Part shown: positions 6,109-60,623 of the stretch, piece after piece
Position numbering within the stretch: the stretch's first letter is position 1
Layout: each line of letters opens with the position of its first letter
Sequence record: PV295200.1
Strand: one strand, 5' to 3'
Source: Escherichia phage vB_Eco_BCPEco_001
Length of the DNA stretch: 64,000 bases
Notes under the pieces: generated by a model
Told to the model about the DNA's origin: nothing
The model's database searches: none
What the model saw: the letters and a program-made list of their open reading frames with translations, nothing else
Position numbers and translations under genes: made by a program

Positions 6109-6115
6109 ATTCAAG

Positions 6116-6139
6116 GACTCCTTCGGGAGTCCTTTTTCA
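6116..6139 (+). terminator. Intrinsic terminator / stabilising hairpin with UUCG tetraloop after soc
   Basis: GGACTCC-TTCG-GGAGTCC then TTTTT; identical copy at 60576. Confidence 0.7.
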
Positions 6140-6147
6140 TTTAAATG

Positions 6148-6177
6148 GTTTACATATCAAAATGAGTATGGTATAAT
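6148..6177 (+). promoter_or_regulatory. T4-type early promoter
   Basis: GTTTAC ... TGGTATAAT. Confidence 0.6.
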
Positions 6178-15117: not shown

Positions 15118-15146
15118 AGTTTAAAATTTTTCATAAAACTATATAC

Positions 15147-15189
15147 ATCAGTAGTTGATTATGGTACTATATCAATATCAACTACTGAT
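15147..15189. repeat. Perfect 13-bp inverted repeat flanking a -10-like TATGGTACTATAT element
   Basis: ATCAGTAGTTGAT ... ATCAACTACTGAT; no GTTTAC -35 upstream. Confidence 0.7.
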
Positions 15190-15287
15190 ACAGAAAACAA
15201 CTTGGAGAATAAAATGGAAATTCGCCAAAGGTGCTGATACTCTTCTGAAACGCATCGCTCCAATGTTTAATTAATGAGGAAATTGTA

Positions 15288-20702: not shown

Positions 20703-21641
20703 ATGTACAATATTAAATGCCTGACCAAAAACGAACAAGCTGAAATTGTTAAACTGTATTCAAGTGGTAATTACACCCAACAGGAATTGGCTGATTGGCA
20801 AGGTGTATCGGTTGACACAATCCGTCGTGTTTTGAAAAATGCTGAAGAAGCTAAACGCCCTAAAGTTACTATTAGCGGTGATATTACAGTTAAAGTTAAT
20901 AGCGATGCAGTTATTGCTCCAGTTGCTAAATCTGACATTATTTGGAATGCATCTAAAAAATTCATTTCAATTACTGTTGACGGTGTAACTTATAACGCAA
21001 CTCCTAATACTCATTCAAACTTCCAGGAAATTCTTAATCTGCTTGTAGCGGATAAGTTGGAAGAAGCGGCACAAAAAATTAATGTTCGTCGCGCTGTTGA
21101 AAAATATATTTCCGGCGATGTTCGAATTGAAGGTGGAAGCTTGTTCTATCAAAATATTGAATTGCGGTCTGGTTTGGTTGATCGTATTCTTGACTCGATG
21201 GAAAAAGGCGAAAACTTTGAATTTTATTTTCCGTTCTTGGAAAATCTGCTGGAAAACCCAAGCCAAAAAGCGGTATCTCGACTCTTTGATTTCTTGGTAG
21301 CAAACGATATTGAAATTACAGAAGATGGTTACTTCTATGCTTGGAAAGTAGTTCGCAGTAATTACTTTGACTGTCATTCAAATACTTTTGATAACAGTCC
21401 TGGTAAAGTAGTTAAAATGCCACGTACTCGTGTGAATGACGATGATACACAAACTTGTTCTCGTGGTCTGCATGTGTGTTCTAAATCTTATATTCGTCAC
21501 TTTGGCAGTTCAACCAGCCGAGTTGTAAAAGTTAAAGTTCATCCTCGCGATGTAGTATCAATTCCGATTGATTACAACGATGCTAAAATGCGTACCTGTC
21601 AATACGAAGTAGTTGAAGACGTTACTGAACAATTTAAATAA
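20703..21641 (+). CDS. rIIB: rIIB
   Basis: 312 aa as T4 rIIB. Confidence 0.92.
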   Translation: MYNIKCLTKNEQAEIVKLYSSGNYTQQELADWQGVSVDTIRRVLKNAEEAKRPKVTISGDITVKVNSDAVIAPVAKSDIIWNASKKFISITVDGVTYNATPNTHSNFQEILNLLVADKLEEAAQKINVRRAVEKYISGDVRIEGGSLFYQNIELRSGLVDRILDSMEKGENFEFYFPFLENLLENPSQKAVSRLFDFLVANDIEITEDGYFYAWKVVRSNYFDCHSNTFDNSPGKVVKMPRTRVNDDDTQTCSRGLHVCSKSYIRHFGSSTSRVVKVKVHPRDVVSIPIDYNDAKMRTCQYEVVEDVTEQFK

Positions 21642-21656
21642 GGGCTTCGGCCCTTA
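21642..21656 (+). terminator. UUCG-tetraloop hairpin after rIIB
   Basis: GGGC-TTCG-GCCC. Confidence 0.5.
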
Positions 21657-21669
21657 ACTAAGGAAAATT

Positions 21670-21864
21670 ATGTTAGGTTATCAAGCACGAGTAAAAGAAG
21701 AATACGATCAATTAATGCTCAAAATTAATGCACTGAGCAAATTTTTAGAAAGCGCAAAGTTTCTAACAGTTAGTGCAGTTGAGCAAGAACTGTTACTTTC
21801 GCAGTTTATCTCAATGAAATCTTATGCTGACTGTTTAGAGAAAAGAATTGAACAATTCAAATAA
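21670..21864 (+). CDS. Hypothetical protein (64 aa)
   Basis: ORF bracketed by two UUCG terminators. Confidence 0.45.
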   Translation: MLGYQARVKEEYDQLMLKINALSKFLESAKFLTVSAVEQELLLSQFISMKSYADCLEKRIEQFK

Positions 21865-21886
21865 GGGCTTCGGCCCTTTTGTTTTA
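21865..21886 (+). terminator. UUCG-tetraloop intrinsic terminator
   Basis: GGGC-TTCG-GCCC then TTTTGTTTT. Confidence 0.6.
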
Positions 21887-21895
21887 AGGTAAATT

Positions 21896-22225
21896 ATGAT
21901 TTATTGTATGAATATCGGTGACACCGACATAAAAGAAATTTCTCTACATGGTAATCATTACGTTAATATTGTGTACTGCAATAAATTCGAGTTTGGGCAT
22001 GAAAAACTTGGAGTTCTTTACTGCAATGATGTTATAGTCATGGACAAAAAGAATCTCGATGAACTTGATCGTAATTCTTTAGATGAAAATGATCGAATTT
22101 ACTATGGTACTCTTAAAGTGTATAACGCTTATCTTAGTGGTAAAAAGGAAAGTTTAAATGCAGAAAACGAATCCGGGGTTACAGAGACTATTTCAGATTC
22201 CGACATTTACCCTATCGAACAGTGA
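21896..22225 (+). CDS. Hypothetical protein (109 aa), 3' end overlaps denB out of frame
   Basis: ORF with RBS AAGG. Confidence 0.35.
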   Translation: MIYCMNIGDTDIKEISLHGNHYVNIVYCNKFEFGHEKLGVLYCNDVIVMDKKNLDELDRNSLDENDRIYYGTLKVYNAYLSGKKESLNAENESGVTETISDSDIYPIEQ

Positions 22226-22715
22226 CTTGACTAGTGAAATGAAGGTCAAAATTGTTGATACTGCAAGATACTCTTTAAAACAAAACCCAAATCAGGATAA
22301 GGCAGAAGTTATCGAAAGATGCCGTATCGCTGTGTACGCAGAGTTTTTTGTAGCAGATTGGATGAGCGGGTATGTTAACAAAGGTCAAGAAGATGTCGAT
22401 GATCCGTACACATATGCATGGGATGTATTGGCGCATCCAAGATACTGCGGGCTTCGTGTAGAAGTTAAGACACATCAAACTGACTCACGTTGGATTTCGG
22501 TGACAACAGGATGCAGCGGAGAGTATCCATATGGTTCTGGAATAAATCTAGGGCCCATTCTAAATCATCAAGTCGCTGACTGTATAATTATATTCAACAC
22601 TAAAGAAATTCATCCAGGTGTCATCCAATACACTCCGAAGTTCATCGGTGATAGAGAAGACCTTCGTAAGGTTGTAAGAAAAAGCAACTACAGCGGATGG
22701 TATCTTTCCATTTAA
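22158..22715 (+). CDS. denB: Endonuclease IV (DenB), cytosine-DNA specific
   Basis: 185 aa; position after rIIB as in T4. Confidence 0.6.
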   Translation: MQKTNPGLQRLFQIPTFTLSNSDLTSEMKVKIVDTARYSLKQNPNQDKAEVIERCRIAVYAEFFVADWMSGYVNKGQEDVDDPYTYAWDVLAHPRYCGLRVEVKTHQTDSRWISVTTGCSGEYPYGSGINLGPILNHQVADCIIIFNTKEIHPGVIQYTPKFIGDREDLRKVVRKSNYSGWYLSI

Positions 22716-22732
22716 AAAATTTTCACAAAACA

Positions 22733-22763
22733 GTTTACATACCACAAGGACCGTGGTACTATA
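22733..22763 (+). promoter_or_regulatory. T4-type early promoter (cassette copy)
   Basis: GTTTAC ... GTGGTACTATACAACTATCAA. Confidence 0.6.
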
Positions 22764-22797
22764 CAACTATCAACTGATACGGATTTGGAGAGTAAAA

Positions 22798-23061
22798 ATG
22801 AAATTTAAATTTTATTACGCTAAACATAAAATTACCGGTGAATTTATTGCATTTACGACTTCAACTACAGATGAAGGAGATATTTTTACTGCAGTATTTT
22901 TATCAAAATGGGAATCAGATCAACCTTACTTATCATCACGTGAAGATCTCCAACGATTAGTTAATGGAGAATATAATGATTCATGGTCATATTTAGTCCA
23001 TGATTGTGTTAAAAAGGCAATAAAACAAAAACACTTGGAAATCGTTGAGATTGAACTATGA
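22798..23061 (+). CDS. Hypothetical protein (88 aa)
   Basis: ATG 22798 after early promoter and leader; ORF-track start is earlier non-ATG. Confidence 0.5.
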   Translation: MKFKFYYAKHKITGEFIAFTTSTTDEGDIFTAVFLSKWESDQPYLSSREDLQRLVNGEYNDSWSYLVHDCVKKAIKQKHLEIVEIEL

Positions 23062-23140
23062 GTTCATTATGGTGGTGTTTTGTTTGGTTAATTAGTATTC
23101 CAGTAATTTGTTTAACATTTACTTTTGTGATGAGGTTATT

Positions 23141-23239
23141 ATGAAAATTTTGAATTCTGTACTTATTGCTTGTGCGTGGTGGGTTGTGCAAGTTTCAGCG
23201 GTAGTAGTTGGTATTCACATTTATTACGAATATTTTTAA
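23141..23239 (+). CDS. Tiny hydrophobic peptide (32 aa)
   Basis: ORF with RBS GAGG; single TM helix. Confidence 0.3.
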   Translation: MKILNSVLIACAWWVVQVSAVVVGIHIYYEYF

Positions 23240-23245
23240 AAAGTT

Positions 23246-23276
23246 GTTTACAAGACTGTTCTTCCGTGGTACTATT
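23246..23276 (+). promoter_or_regulatory. T4-type early promoter
   Basis: GTTTAC ... GTGGTACTATTACCCTATCAA. Confidence 0.6.
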
Positions 23277-23303
23277 ACCCTATCAACTACGGAGGAACAG
23301 AAA

Positions 23304-23417
23304 ATGAAAAAGATTATTAAAGCTATATGGAATGTAGTTATAATACTAGTAGTTTTGAGTATATTCCCAATCGTTTTAATGATTGATGTATTAAACGTTT
23401 ACTTTGGATTTATGTGA
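23304..23417 (+). CDS. Tiny membrane protein (37 aa)
   Basis: ATG after RBS GGAGGAACAG; TM helix. Confidence 0.35.
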   Translation: MKKIIKAIWNVVIILVVLSIFPIVLMIDVLNVYFGFM

Positions 23418-23424
23418 GGAAAAT

Positions 23425-23622
23425 ATGAAGCGTAAACGCAGTGCTTTTACATTTATTGAATGGTTTTTCGATAATATTTTTCCGGCTTTATTCATTTTCA
23501 TGCTGATTTTTGCCTTAGGTTCAGTTGTAGTTGGAATTTATTTGATGACGGTAGTCGGAATGGATATTCATCAAAATGGTTTAAAATCCGTGGTTGAAAC
23601 AATTTGGAATGGTGTAAAATGA
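23425..23622 (+). CDS. Small membrane protein (65 aa)
   Basis: RBS GAGGAAAAT; 2 TM helices. Confidence 0.4.
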   Translation: MKRKRSAFTFIEWFFDNIFPALFIFMLIFALGSVVVGIYLMTVVGMDIHQNGLKSVVETIWNGVK

Positions 23623-23729
23623 TGAATTTGCTGAGTGGTTGGTTTTATATTCTTATGTTTTACATTGGTGCAAATTTCCCATATTGGATGGGATGGTCAA
23701 CAACTGCATTTGGATTTTATACTCCTTGA
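23619..23729 (+). CDS. Tiny hydrophobic peptide (36 aa)
   Basis: ATG overlapping previous stop. Confidence 0.3.
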   Translation: MMNLLSGWFYILMFYIGANFPYWMGWSTTAFGFYTP

Positions 23730-23737
23730 GGTGAATT

Positions 23738-23953
23738 ATGAAAAGTTTTAAAGATGTAAAAGTTGGTGAAATTTTTTGTTTAGATAACGGTGATCAGTTA
23801 ATTCGTATTTCACCTCTTAAGAGCACTAGCGAGAAAATGACAGTTAACGCTACTTTAGAAAATAATAGTAATGAACGTTTCTGTATTGAAAATGATACTG
23901 AAACTTATACCGTAGAAGAATTCTGGGAATTGAGCGTCGACTGCGACGATTAA
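23738..23953 (+). CDS. Hypothetical protein (71 aa)
   Basis: RBS GAGGTGA. Confidence 0.45.
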   Translation: MKSFKDVKVGEIFCLDNGDQLIRISPLKSTSEKMTVNATLENNSNERFCIENDTETYTVEEFWELSVDCDD

Positions 23954-24013
23954 TTTAATGGCCGCGTGTATTCATACGGCCTTGGAGTAGAAAATAATTT
24001 AGAGGAAATTAAT

Positions 24014-24472
24014 ATGAAATATATGACTGTTACTGATCTGAATAATGCAGGCGCTACTGTTATTGGTACAATCAAGGGCGGTGAGTGGTTTTTGGGAACT
24101 CCGCATAAAGATATTTTATCTAAACCTGGATTTTACTTTTTAGTGAGTAAATTAGATGGTCGTCCATTTAGTAATCCGTGCGTGTCCGCACGATTTTATG
24201 TAGGTAATCAGCGTTCTAAGCAAGGATTCAGTGCGGTTCTAAGTCATATTCGTCAGCGTCGGTCTCAGCTTGCGCGTACTATTGCAAATAACAATGTTCC
24301 ATACACAGTATTTTATCTTCCTGCTTCTAAGATGAAACCTCTGACGACAGGATTTGATAAAGGTCAGTTAGCGTTGGCGTTTACTCGTAATCATCATTCT
24401 GAGTATCAAACACTTGAAGAAATGAACCGTATGTTGGCTGATAACTTTAAATTTGTTTTGCAGGCATATTAA
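24014..24472 (+). CDS. ndd: Nucleoid disruption protein Ndd
   Basis: 152 aa; [11 protein letters not shown]...; directly upstream of stp as in T4. Confidence 0.7.
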
Positions 24473-24558
24473 TGAGTAATTTCCATAACGAACATGTGAT
24501 GCAGTTCTATCGTAACAATCTTAAAAACTTTGGTATTTTAGGTTCTAAAAATAGTTGA
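24472..24558 (+). CDS. stp: Stp peptide (28 aa), activator of host PrrC anticodon nuclease via EcoprrI
   Basis: [18 protein letters not shown] matches T4 Stp N-terminus as I recall it; TAATG overlap with ndd. Confidence 0.7.
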
Positions 24559-24568
24559 GGAGAATATT

Positions 24569-24727
24569 ATGAATATCGCAAAATTATTAGGAGTTATTTC
24601 ATTTATTTGCTGGATAGTAGCATGTGTTTTAACTATCTGTATTGATGCCAGCAGTGTGTTTTCGCAAGCTTTAGCTCAGGGTATGTGTGCATATTTAACA
24701 TTTGTGTTGTTATCTACTAATGATTAA
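24569..24727 (+). CDS. ac: Ac (acriflavine sensitivity) small membrane protein (52 aa)
   Basis: Size and position next to stp; hydrophobic. Confidence 0.55.
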   Translation: MNIAKLLGVISFICWIVACVLTICIDASSVFSQALAQGMCAYLTFVLLSTND

Positions 24728-24860
24728 GAAAATCTTGGGCTATTCATTAGCCCTTGCTATTTTATTGATAGCACTATATTATGGAGTAATGTTCGGATTA
24801 ATTCAAGTCGTGCTTTTCATTTCTGATGTTATTATGGCACTACATTCACTAGTATGGTAA
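24720..24860 (+). CDS. Small membrane protein (46 aa), 52.1 position
   Basis: ORF overlapping ac end, hydrophobic. Confidence 0.35.
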   Translation: MIKKILGYSLALAILLIALYYGVMFGLIQVVLFISDVIMALHSLVW

Positions 24861-24864
24861 ATTT

Positions 24865-26193
24865 ATGCAACTGAATAATCGCGATTTAAAAAGTATCATT
24901 GATAATGAAGCATTGGCTTATGCTATGTACACGGTTGAAAATCGTGCTATTCCAAATATGATTGATGGATTTAAGCCAGTTCAACGATTTGTTATTGCTC
25001 GAGCTCTTGATTTGGCACGAGGAAATAAAGATAAGTTTCATAAGCTCGCTTCTATCGCAGGTGGTGTAGCGGACCTTGGATATCACCATGGCGAAAACTC
25101 TGCACAAGACGCAGGTGCTTTGATGGCTAACACTTGGAATAATAACTTTCCTCTGTTAGATGGTCAAGGAAACTTTGGTTCTCGTACTGTTCAAAAAGCA
25201 GCGGCAAGTCGTTATATTTTTGCTCGTGTAAGTAAAAATTTCTATAACGTATATAAAGATACTGAATATGCTCCGGTACATCAAGATAAAGAACACATTC
25301 CGCCTGCTTTCTATTTGCCTATTATTCCTACTGTTCTTCTTAATGGCGTTTCCGGTATTGCAACTGGTTATGCAACTTACATTCTTCCTCATAGTGTTTC
25401 TTCTGTTAAGAAAGCTGTACTGCAAGCTCTTCAAGGAAAGAAGGTAACTAAACCGAAGGTAGAATTCCCAGAATTTCGTGGTGAAGTCGTTGAAATTGAT
25501 GGACAATATGAAATTCGTGGAACATATAAGTTTACTTCACGAACTCAAATGCATATCACTGAGATTCCGTATAAGTATGATCGTGAAACTTATGTGAGTA
25601 AAATCTTAGACCCACTTGAAGATAAAGGCTTCATTACATGGGATGATGCTTGTGGTGAGCATGGTTTTGGATTCAAAGTTAAATTCCGAAAAGAATACTC
25701 TTTGAGCGATAATGAAGAAGAACGCCATGCAAAAATTATGAAAGACTTCGGACTGATTGAGCGTCGTTCTCAGAATATTACAGTCATTAATGAGAAAGGA
25801 AAGCTGCAAGTTTACGATAACGTAGTTGATTTAATTAAAGACTTTGTTGAAGTTCGTAAAACTTATGTCCAAAAACGAATTGATAACAAAATCAAAGAAA
25901 CTGAATCAGCTTTTCGTTTAGCCTTTGCCAAGGCACATTTCATTAAGAAAGTAATTTCAGGTGAAATCGTTGTACAGGGTAAAACTCGCAAAGAACTGAC
26001 CGAAGAACTTTCGAAAATCGATATGTATTCTTCTTATGTTGATAAACTAGTTGGAATGAACATTTTTCATATGACTTCCGACGAAGCAAAGAAACTTGCT
26101 GAAGAAGCTAAAGCCAAAAAAGAAGAAAACGAATATTGGAAAACTACTGATGTAGTTACAGAATACACCAAAGATTTAGAGGAAATCAAATGA
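24865..26193 (+). CDS. 52: DNA topoisomerase II medium (GyrA-like) subunit gp52
   Basis: 442 aa; topo IIA cleavage-core motifs. Confidence 0.92.
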   Translation: MQLNNRDLKSIIDNEALAYAMYTVENRAIPNMIDGFKPVQRFVIARALDLARGNKDKFHKLASIAGGVADLGYHHGENSAQDAGALMANTWNNNFPLLDGQGNFGSRTVQKAAASRYIFARVSKNFYNVYKDTEYAPVHQDKEHIPPAFYLPIIPTVLLNGVSGIATGYATYILPHSVSSVKKAVLQALQGKKVTKPKVEFPEFRGEVVEIDGQYEIRGTYKFTSRTQMHITEIPYKYDRETYVSKILDPLEDKGFITWDDACGEHGFGFKVKFRKEYSLSDNEEERHAKIMKDFGLIERRSQNITVINEKGKLQVYDNVVDLIKDFVEVRKTYVQKRIDNKIKETESAFRLAFAKAHFIKKVISGEIVVQGKTRKELTEELSKIDMYSSYVDKLVGMNIFHMTSDEAKKLAEEAKAKKEENEYWKTTDVVTEYTKDLEEIK

Positions 26194-26339
26194 GTCCATT
26201 CATTGGTATCACAAGCGCTGCATTAGTATCTGGTGGCATTTTACTGGCGGGTTTAGGTGTTGTTCCTGCCGTAGCAGGAGGTCTTCTTGCGTTCGGAATT
26301 CAACGTGTTATCATGACAGTTATCACAGTCATGCAGTAA
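26190..26339 (+). CDS. Small membrane protein (49 aa); not in ORF track
   Basis: ATGA overlap with gene 52 stop; glycine-zipper-like TM. Confidence 0.4.
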   Translation: MSPFIGITSAALVSGGILLAGLGVVPAVAGGLLAFGIQRVIMTVITVMQ

Positions 26340-26344
26340 TTTTA

Positions 26345-26430
26345 GGGAGAGCCGAGGCTCTCCCTTTTTTATTTCAAAAATTTTTTCACAAACGGTTTAC
26401 AACCAAAGCATACTGTGGTACTATACAACT
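26345..26430 (+). repeat. Terminator-promoter cassette copy A (hairpin, A/T-rich UP region, early promoter, conserved leader)
   Basis: Near-identical to 43159-43245: TTTTTTATTTCAAAAATTTTTTCACAAACGGTTTACA...TGGTACTATACAACTATCA. Confidence 0.7.
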
Positions 26431-26472
26431 ATCAAATAAATGAACTGAAACAAACAACCCGGAGATACAAAA

Positions 26473-26700
26473 ATGAAATTTAAAATCGAAAACGAAATCG
26501 TTAAAGCTAAAAATGCTCTGACTGCTAACAAACTGGTTGTAGATGGTATTGAATATGATATCTGTGGAGTTCGTGAAGAAAAACCTGGTGTTCTGACTTT
26601 CTTCACAATGATTTTTAAATTTAAAGGTGGCACAGAATTCAAACAGTTTGATTTTGCCCATGAAGACGAAATCGAAGTTCGTAATCTGAACATTAAGTAA
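26473..26700 (+). CDS. Hypothetical protein (75 aa) inside a duplicated promoter cassette
   Basis: ORF with own early promoter and RBS. Confidence 0.5.
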   Translation: MKFKIENEIVKAKNALTANKLVVDGIEYDICGVREEKPGVLTFFTMIFKFKGGTEFKQFDFAHEDEIEVRNLNIK

Positions 26701-26737
26701 GTACTTTATTAGAGCTCTTGAAAAAGAGTGCAAAAAG

Positions 26738-26768
26738 TGTTTACTTCTGCTTTAAACATGATACTATA
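26738..26768 (+). promoter_or_regulatory. T4-type early promoter upstream of motA
   Basis: GTTTAC ... TGATACTATAG plus leader CTATCAAATAAATGAACTGAAAC duplicated from 26430-26455. Confidence 0.6.
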
Positions 26769-26804
26769 GACCTATCAAATAAATGAACTGAAACGGAGAT
26801 TAAA

Positions 26805-27440
26805 ATGTCTAAAGTAACTTACATCATCAAAGCTTCTAACGATGTTCTGAATGAAAAAACTGCTGCGATTTTAATTACTATTGCTAAGAAAGATTTCATT
26901 ACAGCTGCAGAAGTTCGTGAGGTGCATCCAGATTTAGGTAACGCAGTAGTTAATAGTAATATTGGGGTATTGATTAAAAAAGGCCTGGTGGAGAAATCTG
27001 GTGATGGATTAATCATTACGGGTGAAGCTCAGGATATTATTTCAAATGCAGCAACTTTATACGCACAGGAAAACGCTCCGGAACTGCTGAAAAAACGAGC
27101 AACTCGTAAAGCTCGCGAAATTACTTCCGATATGGAAGAAGATAAAGACTTCATGTTAAAACTTTTAGATGAAAATGGATTTGTTCTTAAAAAGGTTGAA
27201 ACTTATCGTAGTAACTATCTCGCTATTTTAGAAAAACGTACTCACGGAATTCGTAATTTTGAAATTAACAATAATGGAAATATGCGAATTTTTGGATACA
27301 AAATGATGGAACATCATATTCAGAAATTTACTGACATCGGAATGTCATGTAAAATCGCTAAAAACGGTAATGTGTATCTTGACATTAAACGCTCGGCAGA
27401 AAACATTGAAGCTGTAATCACTGTAGCATCTGAACTATGA
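26805..27440 (+). CDS. motA: MotA, activator of middle transcription
   Basis: 211 aa, MSKVTYIIKASNDVLNEKTAAILITIAKK... as T4 MotA. Confidence 0.92.
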   Translation: MSKVTYIIKASNDVLNEKTAAILITIAKKDFITAAEVREVHPDLGNAVVNSNIGVLIKKGLVEKSGDGLIITGEAQDIISNAATLYAQENAPELLKKRATRKAREITSDMEEDKDFMLKLLDENGFVLKKVETYRSNYLAILEKRTHGIRNFEINNNGNMRIFGYKMMEHHIQKFTDIGMSCKIAKNGNVYLDIKRSAENIEAVITVASEL

Positions 27441-27450
27441 GGAATAAATA

Positions 27451-27780
27451 ATGAACAAGTTAGAAATTGTCAATGAACTTCGTCGTTGTGCAGAACCTAC
27501 TCAAGAGGGTTGGGATATTTGGTACCATGGAGCTTATCTTGGAACTATTGTAAAGATTAAGACTGGTAAATACATGATTATTCGTGAAAGTAAAGATGCT
27601 CCAGTAGGTATTCGCAATAATTTTATGGCAGCGATAAGTTCATTTACAGATGCAGCTTACGAAATTTACCTTGCTGATTATAAAGAATTCCAGGAATCTC
27701 AACCGGTTATTCGCTCAATTGGTGTTAACAAAGCTCAACAGAAAACTTTGTGGCAACGTATTAAAGGATGGTTTAAATGA
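27451..27780 (+). CDS. Hypothetical protein (109 aa), arn.x region
   Basis: ORF, RBS GAGGAA. Confidence 0.5.
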
Positions 27781-28238
27781 ACCCATTTATTAATCGTTTA
27801 AAAATGCTGAATGTTCCTTTATCTCGTGAAACTCCAGAAAGTCTTGTTGAAAAATTTAAAGCGCATGGTTATAAATGCACAGAAGAAGATATTCTGAAAG
27901 AAGTTCCTGAAATCTGTTGGCAGACCGCATACTGGGATGAAAACCAAAAGTATCAACGACGAATTGTTTGTGCCGCCAACCGTTTTAAATTAAAAGATGG
28001 ACGAACTCTTGTTATTCCAGGTGCTCGTCATTATTCTAAAGATATGGCAGAAGTTTTAGATGTAGTTAAACCCCAATTAGTTACTCAGCAAGTTTGTGAT
28101 GATGACCAAGGATTTATTGACCAATATAGTAATTATTGGACACGTGAAGAAGCAATGATTATTGCAACTTACGCTGGACAAGTACGTATTGAACGTGGTG
28201 GTAGTGAAAAAGAACTTTACTCTGAGGACCTTTACTAA
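27777..28238 (+). CDS. Hypothetical protein (153 aa)
   Basis: ORF, coupled. Confidence 0.5.
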
Positions 28239-42227: not shown

Positions 42228-43136
42228 ATGTTTAAACGTAAATCTACTGCTGAACTCGCTGCACAAATGGCTAAACTGGCTGGAAATAAAGGTGGTTTTT
42301 CTTCTGAAGATAAAGGCGAGTGGAAACTGAAACTCGACAATGCGGGTAACGGTCAAGCAGTAATTCGTTTTCTTCCGTCTAAAAATGATGAACAAGCACC
42401 ATTCGCAATTCTTGTAAATCACGGTTTCAAGAAAAATGGTAAATGGTATATTGAAACATGTTCATCTACTCACGGTGATTACGATTCTTGCCCAGTATGT
42501 CAATACATCAGTAAAAATGATCTGTACAACACTGACAATAAAGAGTACAGTCTTGTTAAACGTAAAACTTCTTACTGGGCTAACATTCTTGTTGTAAAAG
42601 ACCCAGCTGCTCCAGAAAACGAAGGTAAAGTATTTAAATACCGTTTCGGTAAGAAAATCTGGGATAAAATCAATGCAATGATTGCGGTTGATGTCGAAAT
42701 GGGTGAAACTCCGGTTGATGTAACTTGTCCGTGGGAAGGTGCTAACTTTGTACTGAAAGTTAAACAAGTTTCTGGATTTAGTAACTACGATGAATCTAAA
42801 TTCCTGAATCAATCTGCGATTCCAAACATTGACGATGAATCTTTCCAGAAAGAACTGTTCGAACAAATGGTTGACCTTTCTGAAATGACTTCTAAAGATA
42901 AATTCAAATCGTTTGAAGAACTGAGCACTAAGTTCAGTCAAGTTATGGGAACTGCTGCTATGGGTGGTGCCGCTGCAACTGCTGCTAAGAAAGCTGATAA
43001 AGTTGCTGATGATTTGGATGCATTCAATGTTGATGACTTCAATACAAAAACTGAAGATGATTTTATGAGCTCAAGCTCTGGCAGTTCATCTAGTGCTGAT
43101 GACACGGATCTGGATGACCTTTTAAATGACCTTTAA
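42228..43136 (+). CDS. 32: Single-stranded DNA-binding protein gp32
   Basis: [24 protein letters not shown]...; acidic C-terminal tail; 301 aa plus Met. Confidence 0.95.
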
Positions 43137-43158: not shown

Positions 43159-43245
43159 GGGGACCCTAGAGGTCCCCTTTTTTATTTCAAAAATTTTTTC
43201 ACAAAACGGTTTACATCCTTGTCCTTCCATGGTACTATACAACTA
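43159..43245 (+). repeat. Terminator-promoter cassette copy B downstream of gene 32
   Basis: Hairpin GGGGACC...GGTCCCC, T run, then the same UP region, GTTTAC and TGGTACTATACAACTATCA as copy A. Confidence 0.7.
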
Positions 43246-43281
43246 TCAGCAATACTGCTAATAATTGAAGAGGAAAATAAT

Positions 43282-43509
43282 ATGGCTAAAGTTGATATTG
43301 ACATCGTTGATTTTGAATATATTGAAGAGATTATTCGTAATCGTTATCCTGAACTTAGTATTACAAGCGTGCAAGATTCTAAGTTTTGGAGTATTCAAAT
43401 CGTTATTGAAGGTCCTCTTGAAGACCTCACCCGCTTTATGGCTAATGAATATTGTGATGGCATGGATTCTGAAGACGCAGAATTTTACATGGGACTGATT
43501 GAACAATAA
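43282..43509 (+). CDS. Hypothetical acidic protein (75 aa), frd.x region
   Basis: ATG after GAGGAAAATAAT RBS. Confidence 0.5.
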
Positions 43510-43554: not shown

Positions 43555-43941
43555 ATGGAAATCGGCAAAAAATACGAGTTAAATCCACATCGTATTAAAT
43601 CTTTCATTGATATTAGTTCATCAAATGCTAATATGGTCGGCATCATTCAAGAAAATGGTGGTTGGTTTGAAGTTAAATCAATATCAAGTTTAGATGGCTT
43701 TGATTATGTAACCGAAATCATTTGTGCTAATGGTGAAATCTATAATGATGATGGTATGGGTGATGATTATTTTGAACTTAGTGAAGAAGAGTTTTATTGT
43801 TTCCGCGAATATAAAGAACCGACTTCTGAAGAAGATGAAGTCAAAGACAAGGTTTATGGCGTAACAAAAATTCACTGCATTGTAGACGAAAACAATGTAG
43901 ATGAAATCATTGAACTTTTGCGAAAAACTTTCAAAAAGTAG
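43555..43941 (+). CDS. Hypothetical acidic protein (128 aa)
   Basis: ATG 43555 with RBS GAGGAAA. Confidence 0.5.
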   Translation: MEIGKKYELNPHRIKSFIDISSSNANMVGIIQENGGWFEVKSISSLDGFDYVTEIICANGEIYNDDGMGDDYFELSEEEFYCFREYKEPTSEEDEVKDKVYGVTKIHCIVDENNVDEIIELLRKTFKK

Positions 43942-43971
43942 TTTACAACAGGGTAGTAGTGTGATACTATT
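43941..43971 (+). promoter_or_regulatory. T4-type early promoter
   Basis: GTTTAC ... GTGATACTATTACCCTATCAA. Confidence 0.6.
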
Positions 43972-44000
43972 ACCCTATCAAAATTAATGGAGAAAAGAAA

Positions 44001-60570: not shown

Positions 60571-60575
60571 GTTGA

Positions 60576-60599
60576 GGACTCCTTCGGGAGTCCTTTTTT
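60576..60599 (+). terminator. Intrinsic terminator with UUCG tetraloop (exact copy of 6116-6139)
   Basis: GGACTCC-TTCG-GGAGTCC then TTTTTT. Confidence 0.7.
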
Positions 60600-60623
60600 A
60601 TTTTCCAAAGATTGCACAAAGTT

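Follow-up and report, generated by a model that had tools for sequence, protein, structure and literature searches.

Early promoter elements as probable recombination points around a small ORF upstream of motA in a T4-like phage

The region between gene 52 and motA of Escherichia phage vB_Eco_BCPEco_001 contains a terminator, an early promoter and a leader that recur, in similar form, at other loci, and it raises the question of whether these are mobile regulatory cassettes, as the initial annotation proposed, or resident signals between which other parts move. The window (the whole stretch of 64,000 nucleotides analysed, from record PV295200.1) is part of a Tequatrovirus (T4-like) genome; positions 25000-28000 show 100% identity with Salmonella phage vB_Sen_BCPSen_003 and 97-98% with many Tequatrovirus genomes. 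The T4 early-gene strand is the + strand of the window, which shows the order rIIB (20703-21641), denB (22158-22715), gene 52 (24865-26193), motA.1, an ORF of 75 amino acids (ORF75) and motA, and gene 32 ends at 43136, upstream of frd.3 (Table 1). The upstream transcription unit is closed by motA.1, which lies downstream of gene 52. Neither motA.1 nor ORF75 has a match in Pfam, and the PHROGs families matched by both are all annotated as of unknown function. With a probability of about 0.8, the repeats are T-even-type PeSLs (early promoters behind intrinsic terminators), whose conserved blocks have served as recombination points for the insertion of ORF75 upstream of motA and for the copying of promoter cores.

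Table 1. Genes and regulatory features at the denB, motA and gene 32-frd.3 loci of the window.
Feature	Positions	Strand	Description	Basis
Post-denB early promoter	22713-22773	+	UP; -35 GTTTACA (22733-22739); spacer B TACCACAAGGACCG (22740-22753); TGG/-10/+1 (22754-22773)	
87-aa ORF	22798-23061	+	MKFKFYY..., PHROG 2390; downstream of the denB promoter	
motA.1	26190-26339	+	49-aa predicted membrane protein	ORF list, T4 annotation, PHROG 3487
Intrinsic terminator, left PeSL stem-loop	26345-26370	+	Hairpin GGGAGAGCC-GAGG-GCTCTCCC and T6 run	
UP-element region and -35, left early promoter	26365-26401	+	A/T-rich; -35 GTTTACA (26395-26401); equals T4 PmotA	
Spacer allele A	26402-26415	+	ACCAAAGCATACTG; home allele of the motA-locus promoter	
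TGn/-10/+1, left promoter	26416-26435	+	TGn (26416-26418); -10 TACTAT (26419-26424); conserved +1 region CTATCAA	
Leader, left copy	26429-26451	+	23 nt, CTATCAAATAAATGAACTGAAAC; GGAG SD follows at 26461-26464	
ORF75	26473-26700	+	75 aa, function unknown (PHROG 10955)	
Degraded stem-loop, right PeSL	26711-26731	+	AGAGCTCTT-GAAA-AAGAGTGC, no T-run	
Right early promoter, Dhakavirus PmotA type	26739-26778	+	-35 GTTTACT; 13-nt spacer TCTGCTTTAAACA; TGA; -10 TACTAT (26762-26767); CTATCAA	
Leader, right copy, and SD	26772-26804	+	GGAG SD/RegB-type site (26795-26798)	
motA	26805-27440	+	Middle transcription activator	ORF translation, annotations
Gene 32 terminator	43159-43183	+	Hairpin GGGGACC-CTAGA-GGTCCCC and T6 run	
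frd.3 early promoter	43178-43249	+	UP; -35 GTTTACA (43209-43215); spacer C TCCTTGTCCTTCCA (43216-43229); TGG/-10/+1 (43230-43249)	
frd.3	43282-43509	+	75 aa; served by the 43210 promoter	ORF list, T4 annotation

Conserved blocks at three early promoters

An exact-match search shows a 28-nt T-run/UP block, TTTTTTATTTCAAAAATTTTTTCACAAA, at 26365 and 43178, and a 19-nt TGn/-10/+1 block, TGGTACTATACAACTATCA, at 22754, 26416 and 43230, and the stretches 26345-26435 and 43159-43249 are identical at 76 of 93 positions (82%) in a gapped alignment, so the repeats described at several loci by the initial annotation are real. It had the shared segment run from the hairpin on, at 26345-26430 and 43159-43245, and this holds for the UP, -35 and -10/+1 blocks but not for the hairpins (GGGAGAGCCGAGGCTCTCCC vs GGGGACCCTAGAGGTCCCC), the 14-nt spacers between -35 and TGn, which are unrelated (ACCAAAGCATACTG in the 26345 copy, TCCTTGTCCTTCCA in the 43159 copy), or the position before the -35, where the copies differ by a 1-nt indel (CACAAACGG vs CACAAAACGG). 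The partial copy placed near 22705-22770 has the promoter blocks, at 22713-22773, and lacks the hairpin because the denB stop codon sits within its A/T-rich upstream region. Since hairpins and 14-nt spacers differ, the copies are not recent whole-cassette duplicates, and the window alone shows no recent copying of the whole cassette. The leader was also said to be duplicated around the ORF, and its 23-nt repeat, CTATCAAATAAATGAACTGAAAC, is found at 26429 and, 343 nt further on, at 26772, flanking ORF75.

The published T-even PeSL pattern TTTACW-N16-18-TAYWAT shows 16 matches in the window, all on the + strand, against 1.2 expected. In an alignment of 19 promoters, pairs among the three named copies score highest in the UP/-35 block (0.69-0.75 without gaps, against a mean of 0.49) and again in the -10/+1 block (0.95-1.00, against a mean of 0.57); their spacers resemble one another only at chance level. 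In the leader block one pair alone stands out, 26396/26740, at 0.85 against a mean of 0.31. The similarity of the named copies is thus above chance and above the generic consensus, and self-alignment, the check suggested along with the initial proposal, shows identity extending past the consensus to which the likeness might have been confined.

The terminator at 26345 is the best terminator-like site in 20-30 kb (-17.6 kcal/mol, z -4.0) and is identical in T4, which also has the sequence of the left promoter (26396) in front of motA; transcription from this promoter would start at about A26431. The gene 32 terminator (-14.3 kcal/mol) is conserved in nine aligned phages. The frd.3 promoter has the same position in T4, but the T4 spacer is of another allele (D, below), and the denB promoter is identical in T4, spacer included. 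All three elements are positioned as in T4, between motA.1 and motA, gene 32 and frd.3, and denB and ndd.6, and they are resident regulatory signals rather than recently transposed ones. The proposal of mobile regulatory cassettes therefore does not hold for the cassettes as units, all three being at T4 positions; movement appears instead to involve the ORF module and, in a separate process of gene conversion, the core of the promoter. The left leader is unstructured (0 kcal/mol), and across the leaders the folding energies (0 to -2.4 kcal/mol) do not surpass those of shuffled sequences. In 22600-27000, Rfam yielded two sub-threshold chance matches and none at gathering score; a riboswitch or sRNA reading of the leaders was dropped on account of these sub-threshold matches and the unstructured leaders.

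Other repeats and variants were recorded alongside. A 30-nt direct repeat (97%) at 21626-21655 and 21849-21878, made of last codons (...EQFK stop) and the hairpin AAGGGCTTCGGCCCTT, brackets a 64-aa ORF at 21670-21864, between rIIB and denB, an arrangement that resembles a module bounded by terminators, as ORF75 is by promoters. The terminator AGGACTCCTTCGGGAGTCC with its T-run (29 nt, 97%) is present at two distant loci, 6114-6142 and 60575-60603, each with an early promoter within 10-30 nt downstream (-35 at 6148 and 60624), so hairpins too are common to different PeSLs. A second early-promoter subfamily (23229-23286 and 43924-43981) shows a -10/+1 block, TGrTACTATTACCCTATCAA, that is 95% identical between copies, with 67% identity in the UP/-35 block, and this -10/+1 type also adjoins ORF75 homologues in other genera. 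The early promoter at 15124-15215 has a degenerate -35, TATATACA, and a leader, AACTACTGATACAGAAAACAACTTGGAGAAT, that metagenome contigs carry at another locus, upstream of MDNYGELF..., and that resembles the T4 motA leader, AACTACTGATACAGAATTACGGAG; leaders therefore come in few shared types too. In EC128 (ON210139), at ~860-880, equivalent to window positions 26416-26431, a 16-nt deletion with intact flanks takes out the TGn and the -10 of the motA early promoter, and this reflects a natural knockout of the promoter or else an error in the assembly.

ORF75 in the slot between gene 52 and motA

ORF75, predicted to be a small beta-barrel (AF2 pLDDT 89), has a homologue in 167 phage records, with at least 95% amino acid identity in 137, and its relatives form six clusters in the protein database. 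It is absent from T4, ECO4, RB32 and EC128, in which the motA.1 terminator and promoter lead straight into motA. At least 80% of the segment 26150-26850 is covered in only 127 of 964 matching records, and most Tequatrovirus records align to it as two pieces spanning ~363 nt; the 137 records at 95% or more amount to roughly a quarter of ~480-500 Tequatroviruses. Dhakavirus JS10 carries ORF75 in the same 52-motA slot, and positions 26460-26817 show 97-100% identity with JS10 in all 60-nt blocks but one (90%), while the flanks fall to 75.7% in gene 52 and to 47-78% in motA. The suggestion that this ORF may be a recently shuffled module is borne out by its absence from T4 and most Tequatroviruses, by 97-100% identity with JS10 against ~76% in the flanks, and by junctions within regulatory motifs, and we regard ORF75 as a shuffled, apparently laterally acquired module.

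The crossovers were mapped by a three-way informative-site scan of the window, T4 and JS10. The left one lies in CTATCAA (26429-26435), with T4-type PmotA, spacer included, on its left and JS10-type sequence on its right. The right one lies at 26797-26814, between the AG indel in GGAGATT[AG]AAAATG and codon 4 of motA: the sequence is JS10-type through 26789 and the AG indel, and T4-type from 26814. Both thus fall in short conserved regulatory motifs, where exact homology is only 7-12 nt, inside near-identical blocks of 20-22 nt.

The right promoter is 97% identical to both promoter copies of JS10, and it shares its spacer with the native promoter of motA in Dhakavirus ABTNLS3, a phage whose slot is empty; the transfer would therefore have run from a Dhakavirus-like donor to a Tequatrovirus. 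Its stem-loop at 26711 (-6.4 kcal/mol) appears as a perfect 8-bp stem in JS10 (-12.8 kcal/mol, z -4.8), ABTNLsp5 and LF82-2. Read-through from 26396 is predicted over the degraded stem-loop, so motA would be served by two tandem early promoters. The T4 leader is of a third type, and T4 is therefore not simply the deletion state.

The 52-motA slot shows three states: empty in T4 and ABTNLS3, ORF75 in JS10 and the window clade, and an unrelated ORF71 in ABTNLsp5 and LF82-2. ORF71 (71 aa, MNKMKNTQNATTRFGKVKPG..., PHROG 6200, unknown function; 583-798 of L019 in LF82-2 and 588-803 of L021 in ABTNLsp5) sits between the same two PeSLs as ORF75. In JS10, ABTNLsp5 and LF82-2, the same stem-loop, AGAGCTCTTGAAAAAGAGCTC, and a second copy of the promoter lie downstream of the cargo ORF. 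The direct repeats flanking the slot measure 36 nt in the window and 54-65 nt in the others. Homologues of ORF75 with 57-70% amino acid identity are found in other genera and contexts: between nrdC.11 and nrdC.10 in S16, among unannotated ORFs in Karamvirus RZH, adjoining a tRNA cluster in a Jiaodavirus and in the 52-motA interval in Merlin, and each is bracketed by early promoters with repeated -10, leader and SD. The denB slot is variable as well, with ndd.6 (MKIAEI...) in T4, MKFKFYY in the window and MFTTAE... in another contig, the denB promoter and leader preceding three different ORFs in different phages. Across 477 records no ORF is inserted or deleted at the 32-frd.3 junction, and this copy is therefore not tied to module shuffling; the promoter core there is itself polymorphic.

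Spacer alleles and the competing explanations

The pattern CACAAAACRGTTTACA-N14-TGGTACTATACAACTATC was scanned in IMG/VR and metagenome contigs, the IMG/VR scan giving only seven loci, and the 32-frd.3 promoter of six named phages was added. Spacer A, ACCAAAGCATACTG, is found at the motA locus in every tabulated sequence with that locus captured, one copy being 1 base off, and spacer B (TACCACAAGGACyG) always has the denB locus as its home; the home of spacer C, TCCTTGTCCTTCCA, is upstream of the MDNYG... ORF and that of spacer D, AGCATAAAGCTTTA, upstream of a Walker-A ATPase ORF. At the 32-frd.3 junction, allele A is present in teqskov and two metagenome contigs, a B-type in two contigs and Ec_YwIITB1, a C-type in the window, AR1, PYps11T and RB32, and D in T4, and the rest of the 170-nt region is at least 95% identical across alleles. 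Among ~480-500 records of isolate genomes the 32-frd.3 counts, approximate because taken from BLAST identity bands, are ~250 for C, ~77 for D, ~55 for B and ~22 for A. Variants within alleles are shared too: the single-base variant ...GACTG occurs at both denB and 32-frd.3 in OBRH, and TCCCTGTTCTTC is common to the 32-frd.3 promoter of RB32 and the C locus of OBRH. A search for the T4-type or the window-type 32-frd.3 spacer elsewhere in the window gave chance-level matches only; the home loci of alleles C and D are either outside the window or carry other alleles here. Chance identity of one 14-mer is ~4e-9. Convergence is ruled out for identical 14-mers at different loci. The simplest reading would be repeated ectopic gene conversion of promoter cores with 32-frd.3 as a frequent recipient, a direction of conversion that we infer. 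We think it probable that promoter cores, spacer included, are convertible units, that 32-frd.3 has been overwritten repeatedly by all four alleles in an ongoing ectopic conversion amounting to concerted evolution in a lytic phage population, and that the same short blocks also target cross-genus ORF insertion.

The preferred reading builds on comparative observations, namely ORF presence and absence, the identity discontinuity, the junctions and the shared spacers, and it adds promoter activity, terminator activity and a recombination pathway that are predicted from sequence. An intrinsic terminator would close the upstream unit, with a T4 early promoter directly after it, laid out as an A/T-rich UP, -35 GTTTACA, a TGn-extended -10 TACTAT and the +1 region CTATCAA, and then an A-rich unstructured leader and a GGAG SD of the kind cut by RegB. 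Judging from the sequence and the T4 literature, host sigma70 RNA polymerase would fire there right after infection, giving transcripts of ORF75 with motA, of frd.3 and of the ORF after denB. The near-identity of the copies may have two causes, strong selection on each block contacted by RNA polymerase and repeated ectopic gene conversion among promoter copies. The conserved blocks could then provide the phage recombination system with short linkers of homology, allowing small ORF modules to enter, leave or replace one another precisely between regulatory signals. ORF75 would have come from a Dhakavirus-like donor along with the donor motA promoter and leader, by a double crossover at CTATCAA in the +1 region of the resident PmotA and at the SD/ATG of motA, the exchange being made by the phage's own homologous recombination on short patches. 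Less than 50 bp of homology suffices for phage recombination (PMC2839356); the 7-12 nt of exact homology is short for classical homologous recombination and counts against this explanation.

A purely functional account, in which independent early promoters are alike through selection for maximal RNA polymerase binding, with a generic consensus and no role in recombination, agrees with the difference of spacers and hairpins within the window, with the presence of the three promoters at the same positions in T4 and with the consensus that T4 early promoters are known to share beyond -35 and -10 (PMC2988021). It is very unlikely given the ORF75 junctions inside conserved blocks, the far greater likeness of the three named copies than of the other 16 promoters, and the identical 14-nt spacers at different loci in different phages. 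The 14-nt spacer is not read base-specifically by RNA polymerase. If the promoter-leader of motA had been duplicated in tandem in situ, and ORF75 had emerged or decayed on the spot without lateral transfer, the direct repeat of -10 and leader that flanks the ORF would be explained. The two promoters are wholly different upstream of the -10 (spacer and -35 context), the right one being of Dhakavirus type, JS10, from another genus, has nearly the same ORF75 and right promoter, and ORF75 homologues with 57-70% identity occur in other genera and contexts, and this duplication was rejected as extremely improbable.

ORF75 might instead be carried by a mobile element that integrates site-specifically, whether a PeSL mini-circle or a cassette like those of integrons, with a dedicated recombinase recognising the stem-loop or the promoter. 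PeSL mini-circles have been detected experimentally in RB49/phi1 (PMC2839356), ORF75 of JS10 is flanked by 65-nt direct repeats that are 94% identical, the signature of a single-crossover circle integration, and two unrelated cargo ORFs have the conserved stem-loop AGAGCTCTTGAAAAAGAGCTC ahead of their distal promoter. In the window, however, the junctions are at different motifs (the +1 region and the SD/ATG) and the right leader is donor-type, so a double crossover with a donor genome fits and circle integration does not. No integrase or recombinase is seen beside the cassettes, and to our knowledge none is known next to such cassettes. Among ~650 phage records, a synthetic junction representing precise excision of ORF75 has no single-piece full-length match. 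We consider such an element unlikely.

If exchange on short homology patches is the right reading, the locus would illustrate in nature, at the resolution of single base pairs, the gain, loss and exchange of small accessory genes by T4-like phages with the neighbouring regulation undamaged, in a transfer that apparently crossed a genus boundary, from Dhakavirus to Tequatrovirus. It places a second, predicted strong early promoter and an extra gene ahead of motA, the master activator of middle transcription. The spacer alleles at the 32/frd.3 promoter may offer an easily counted marker for ectopic recombination in populations of phages, and promoter-bounded slots would be natural safe insertion sites, of use in annotation and phage engineering.

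Relation to known elements

The T-even PeSL, as described in the main text of Comeau, Arbiol & Krisch (2014, PMC4122927), consists of an A/T-rich region, TTTACW-N17-TAYWAT, a stem-loop upstream and an SD and ATG at the 3' end. All four promoters (22734, 26396, 26740 with N16, and 43210) have this promoter with A/T-rich sequence upstream. The stem-loop, as a predicted terminator, is present with a T-run at 26345 and at 43159, weak at 26711 and absent at the 22713 copy. A GGAG stands 6-8 nt before ATG at 26461/26473, 26795/26805 and 22789/22798, and frd.3 shows GAGG before its ATG at 43282. ORF turnover is seen at the motA and denB slots and not at 32-frd.3. The likeness to PeSLs noted at the outset thus agrees with the PST/T4 definition as that main text gives it, and the same source describes the same phage group (Tequatrovirus), the same consensus and architecture and the same link to ORF indels and replacements; its Fig. 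6A depicts the ndd.4/.5 slot, near the denB promoter studied here. A term search of its main text returned nothing for the motA slot, ORF75, gene conversion, spacers or chimeric PeSLs, and the terms "gene conversion", "concerted" and "spacer" gave no result in the main text of either PMC2839356 or PMC4122927.

The PeSLs of RB49/phi1 (Arbiol et al., 2010, PMC2839356) are also composite, with strong early promoters and terminator stem-loops flanking ORFans that differ between close relatives; they are repeated ~50 times per genome, and recombination between repeats, possibly with mini-circle intermediates, has been proposed for them. Unlike the elements of the window, with -35 GTTTACA, those of RB49 have near-perfect sigma70 hexamers (TTGACA/TATAAT), and their stems are G-run/C-run stems, often between or overlapping -35 and -10 (PMC2839356), whereas here a separate predicted terminator lies upstream and the two hairpins differ. 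Mini-circles have been demonstrated in RB49/phi1 (PMC2839356). Promoter and terminator activity has been shown by reporter assays in the papers defining PeSLs (PMC2839356, PMC4122927).

T4 early promoters have UP, -35, TGn and -10 blocks with extra consensus regions (Hinton 2010 review, PMC2988021, which cites the promoter lists of Wilkens & Rüger), and their timing and sigma70 dependence are taken here from the literature (PMC2988021). The window promoters show the same UP/-35/TGn/-10 blocks on the early-gene strand at the positions of T4 early units, and are alike in the extra consensus and in direction; T4 early promoters are described as transcription signals, and a role as recombination linkers and an exchange of spacers between loci are outside that description (PMC2988021). 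The GGAG of early mRNA SDs is the target of RegB (PMC3014915).

Integron gene cassettes, Botstein "linker" modules and morons, the analogies drawn in PMC2839356, likewise are small self-expressed ORF modules at defined intergenic sites that leave their neighbours undisrupted; unlike them, the elements studied here show no integrase and no attC-type site, their junctions are ordinary regulatory motifs, and the process looks like short-homology recombination. The PeSL class is already known and the elements of the window are further instances of it; what they add is an apparent cross-genus cassette transfer at the motA slot, resolved to the base, together with sequence evidence pointing to gene conversion of promoter cores.
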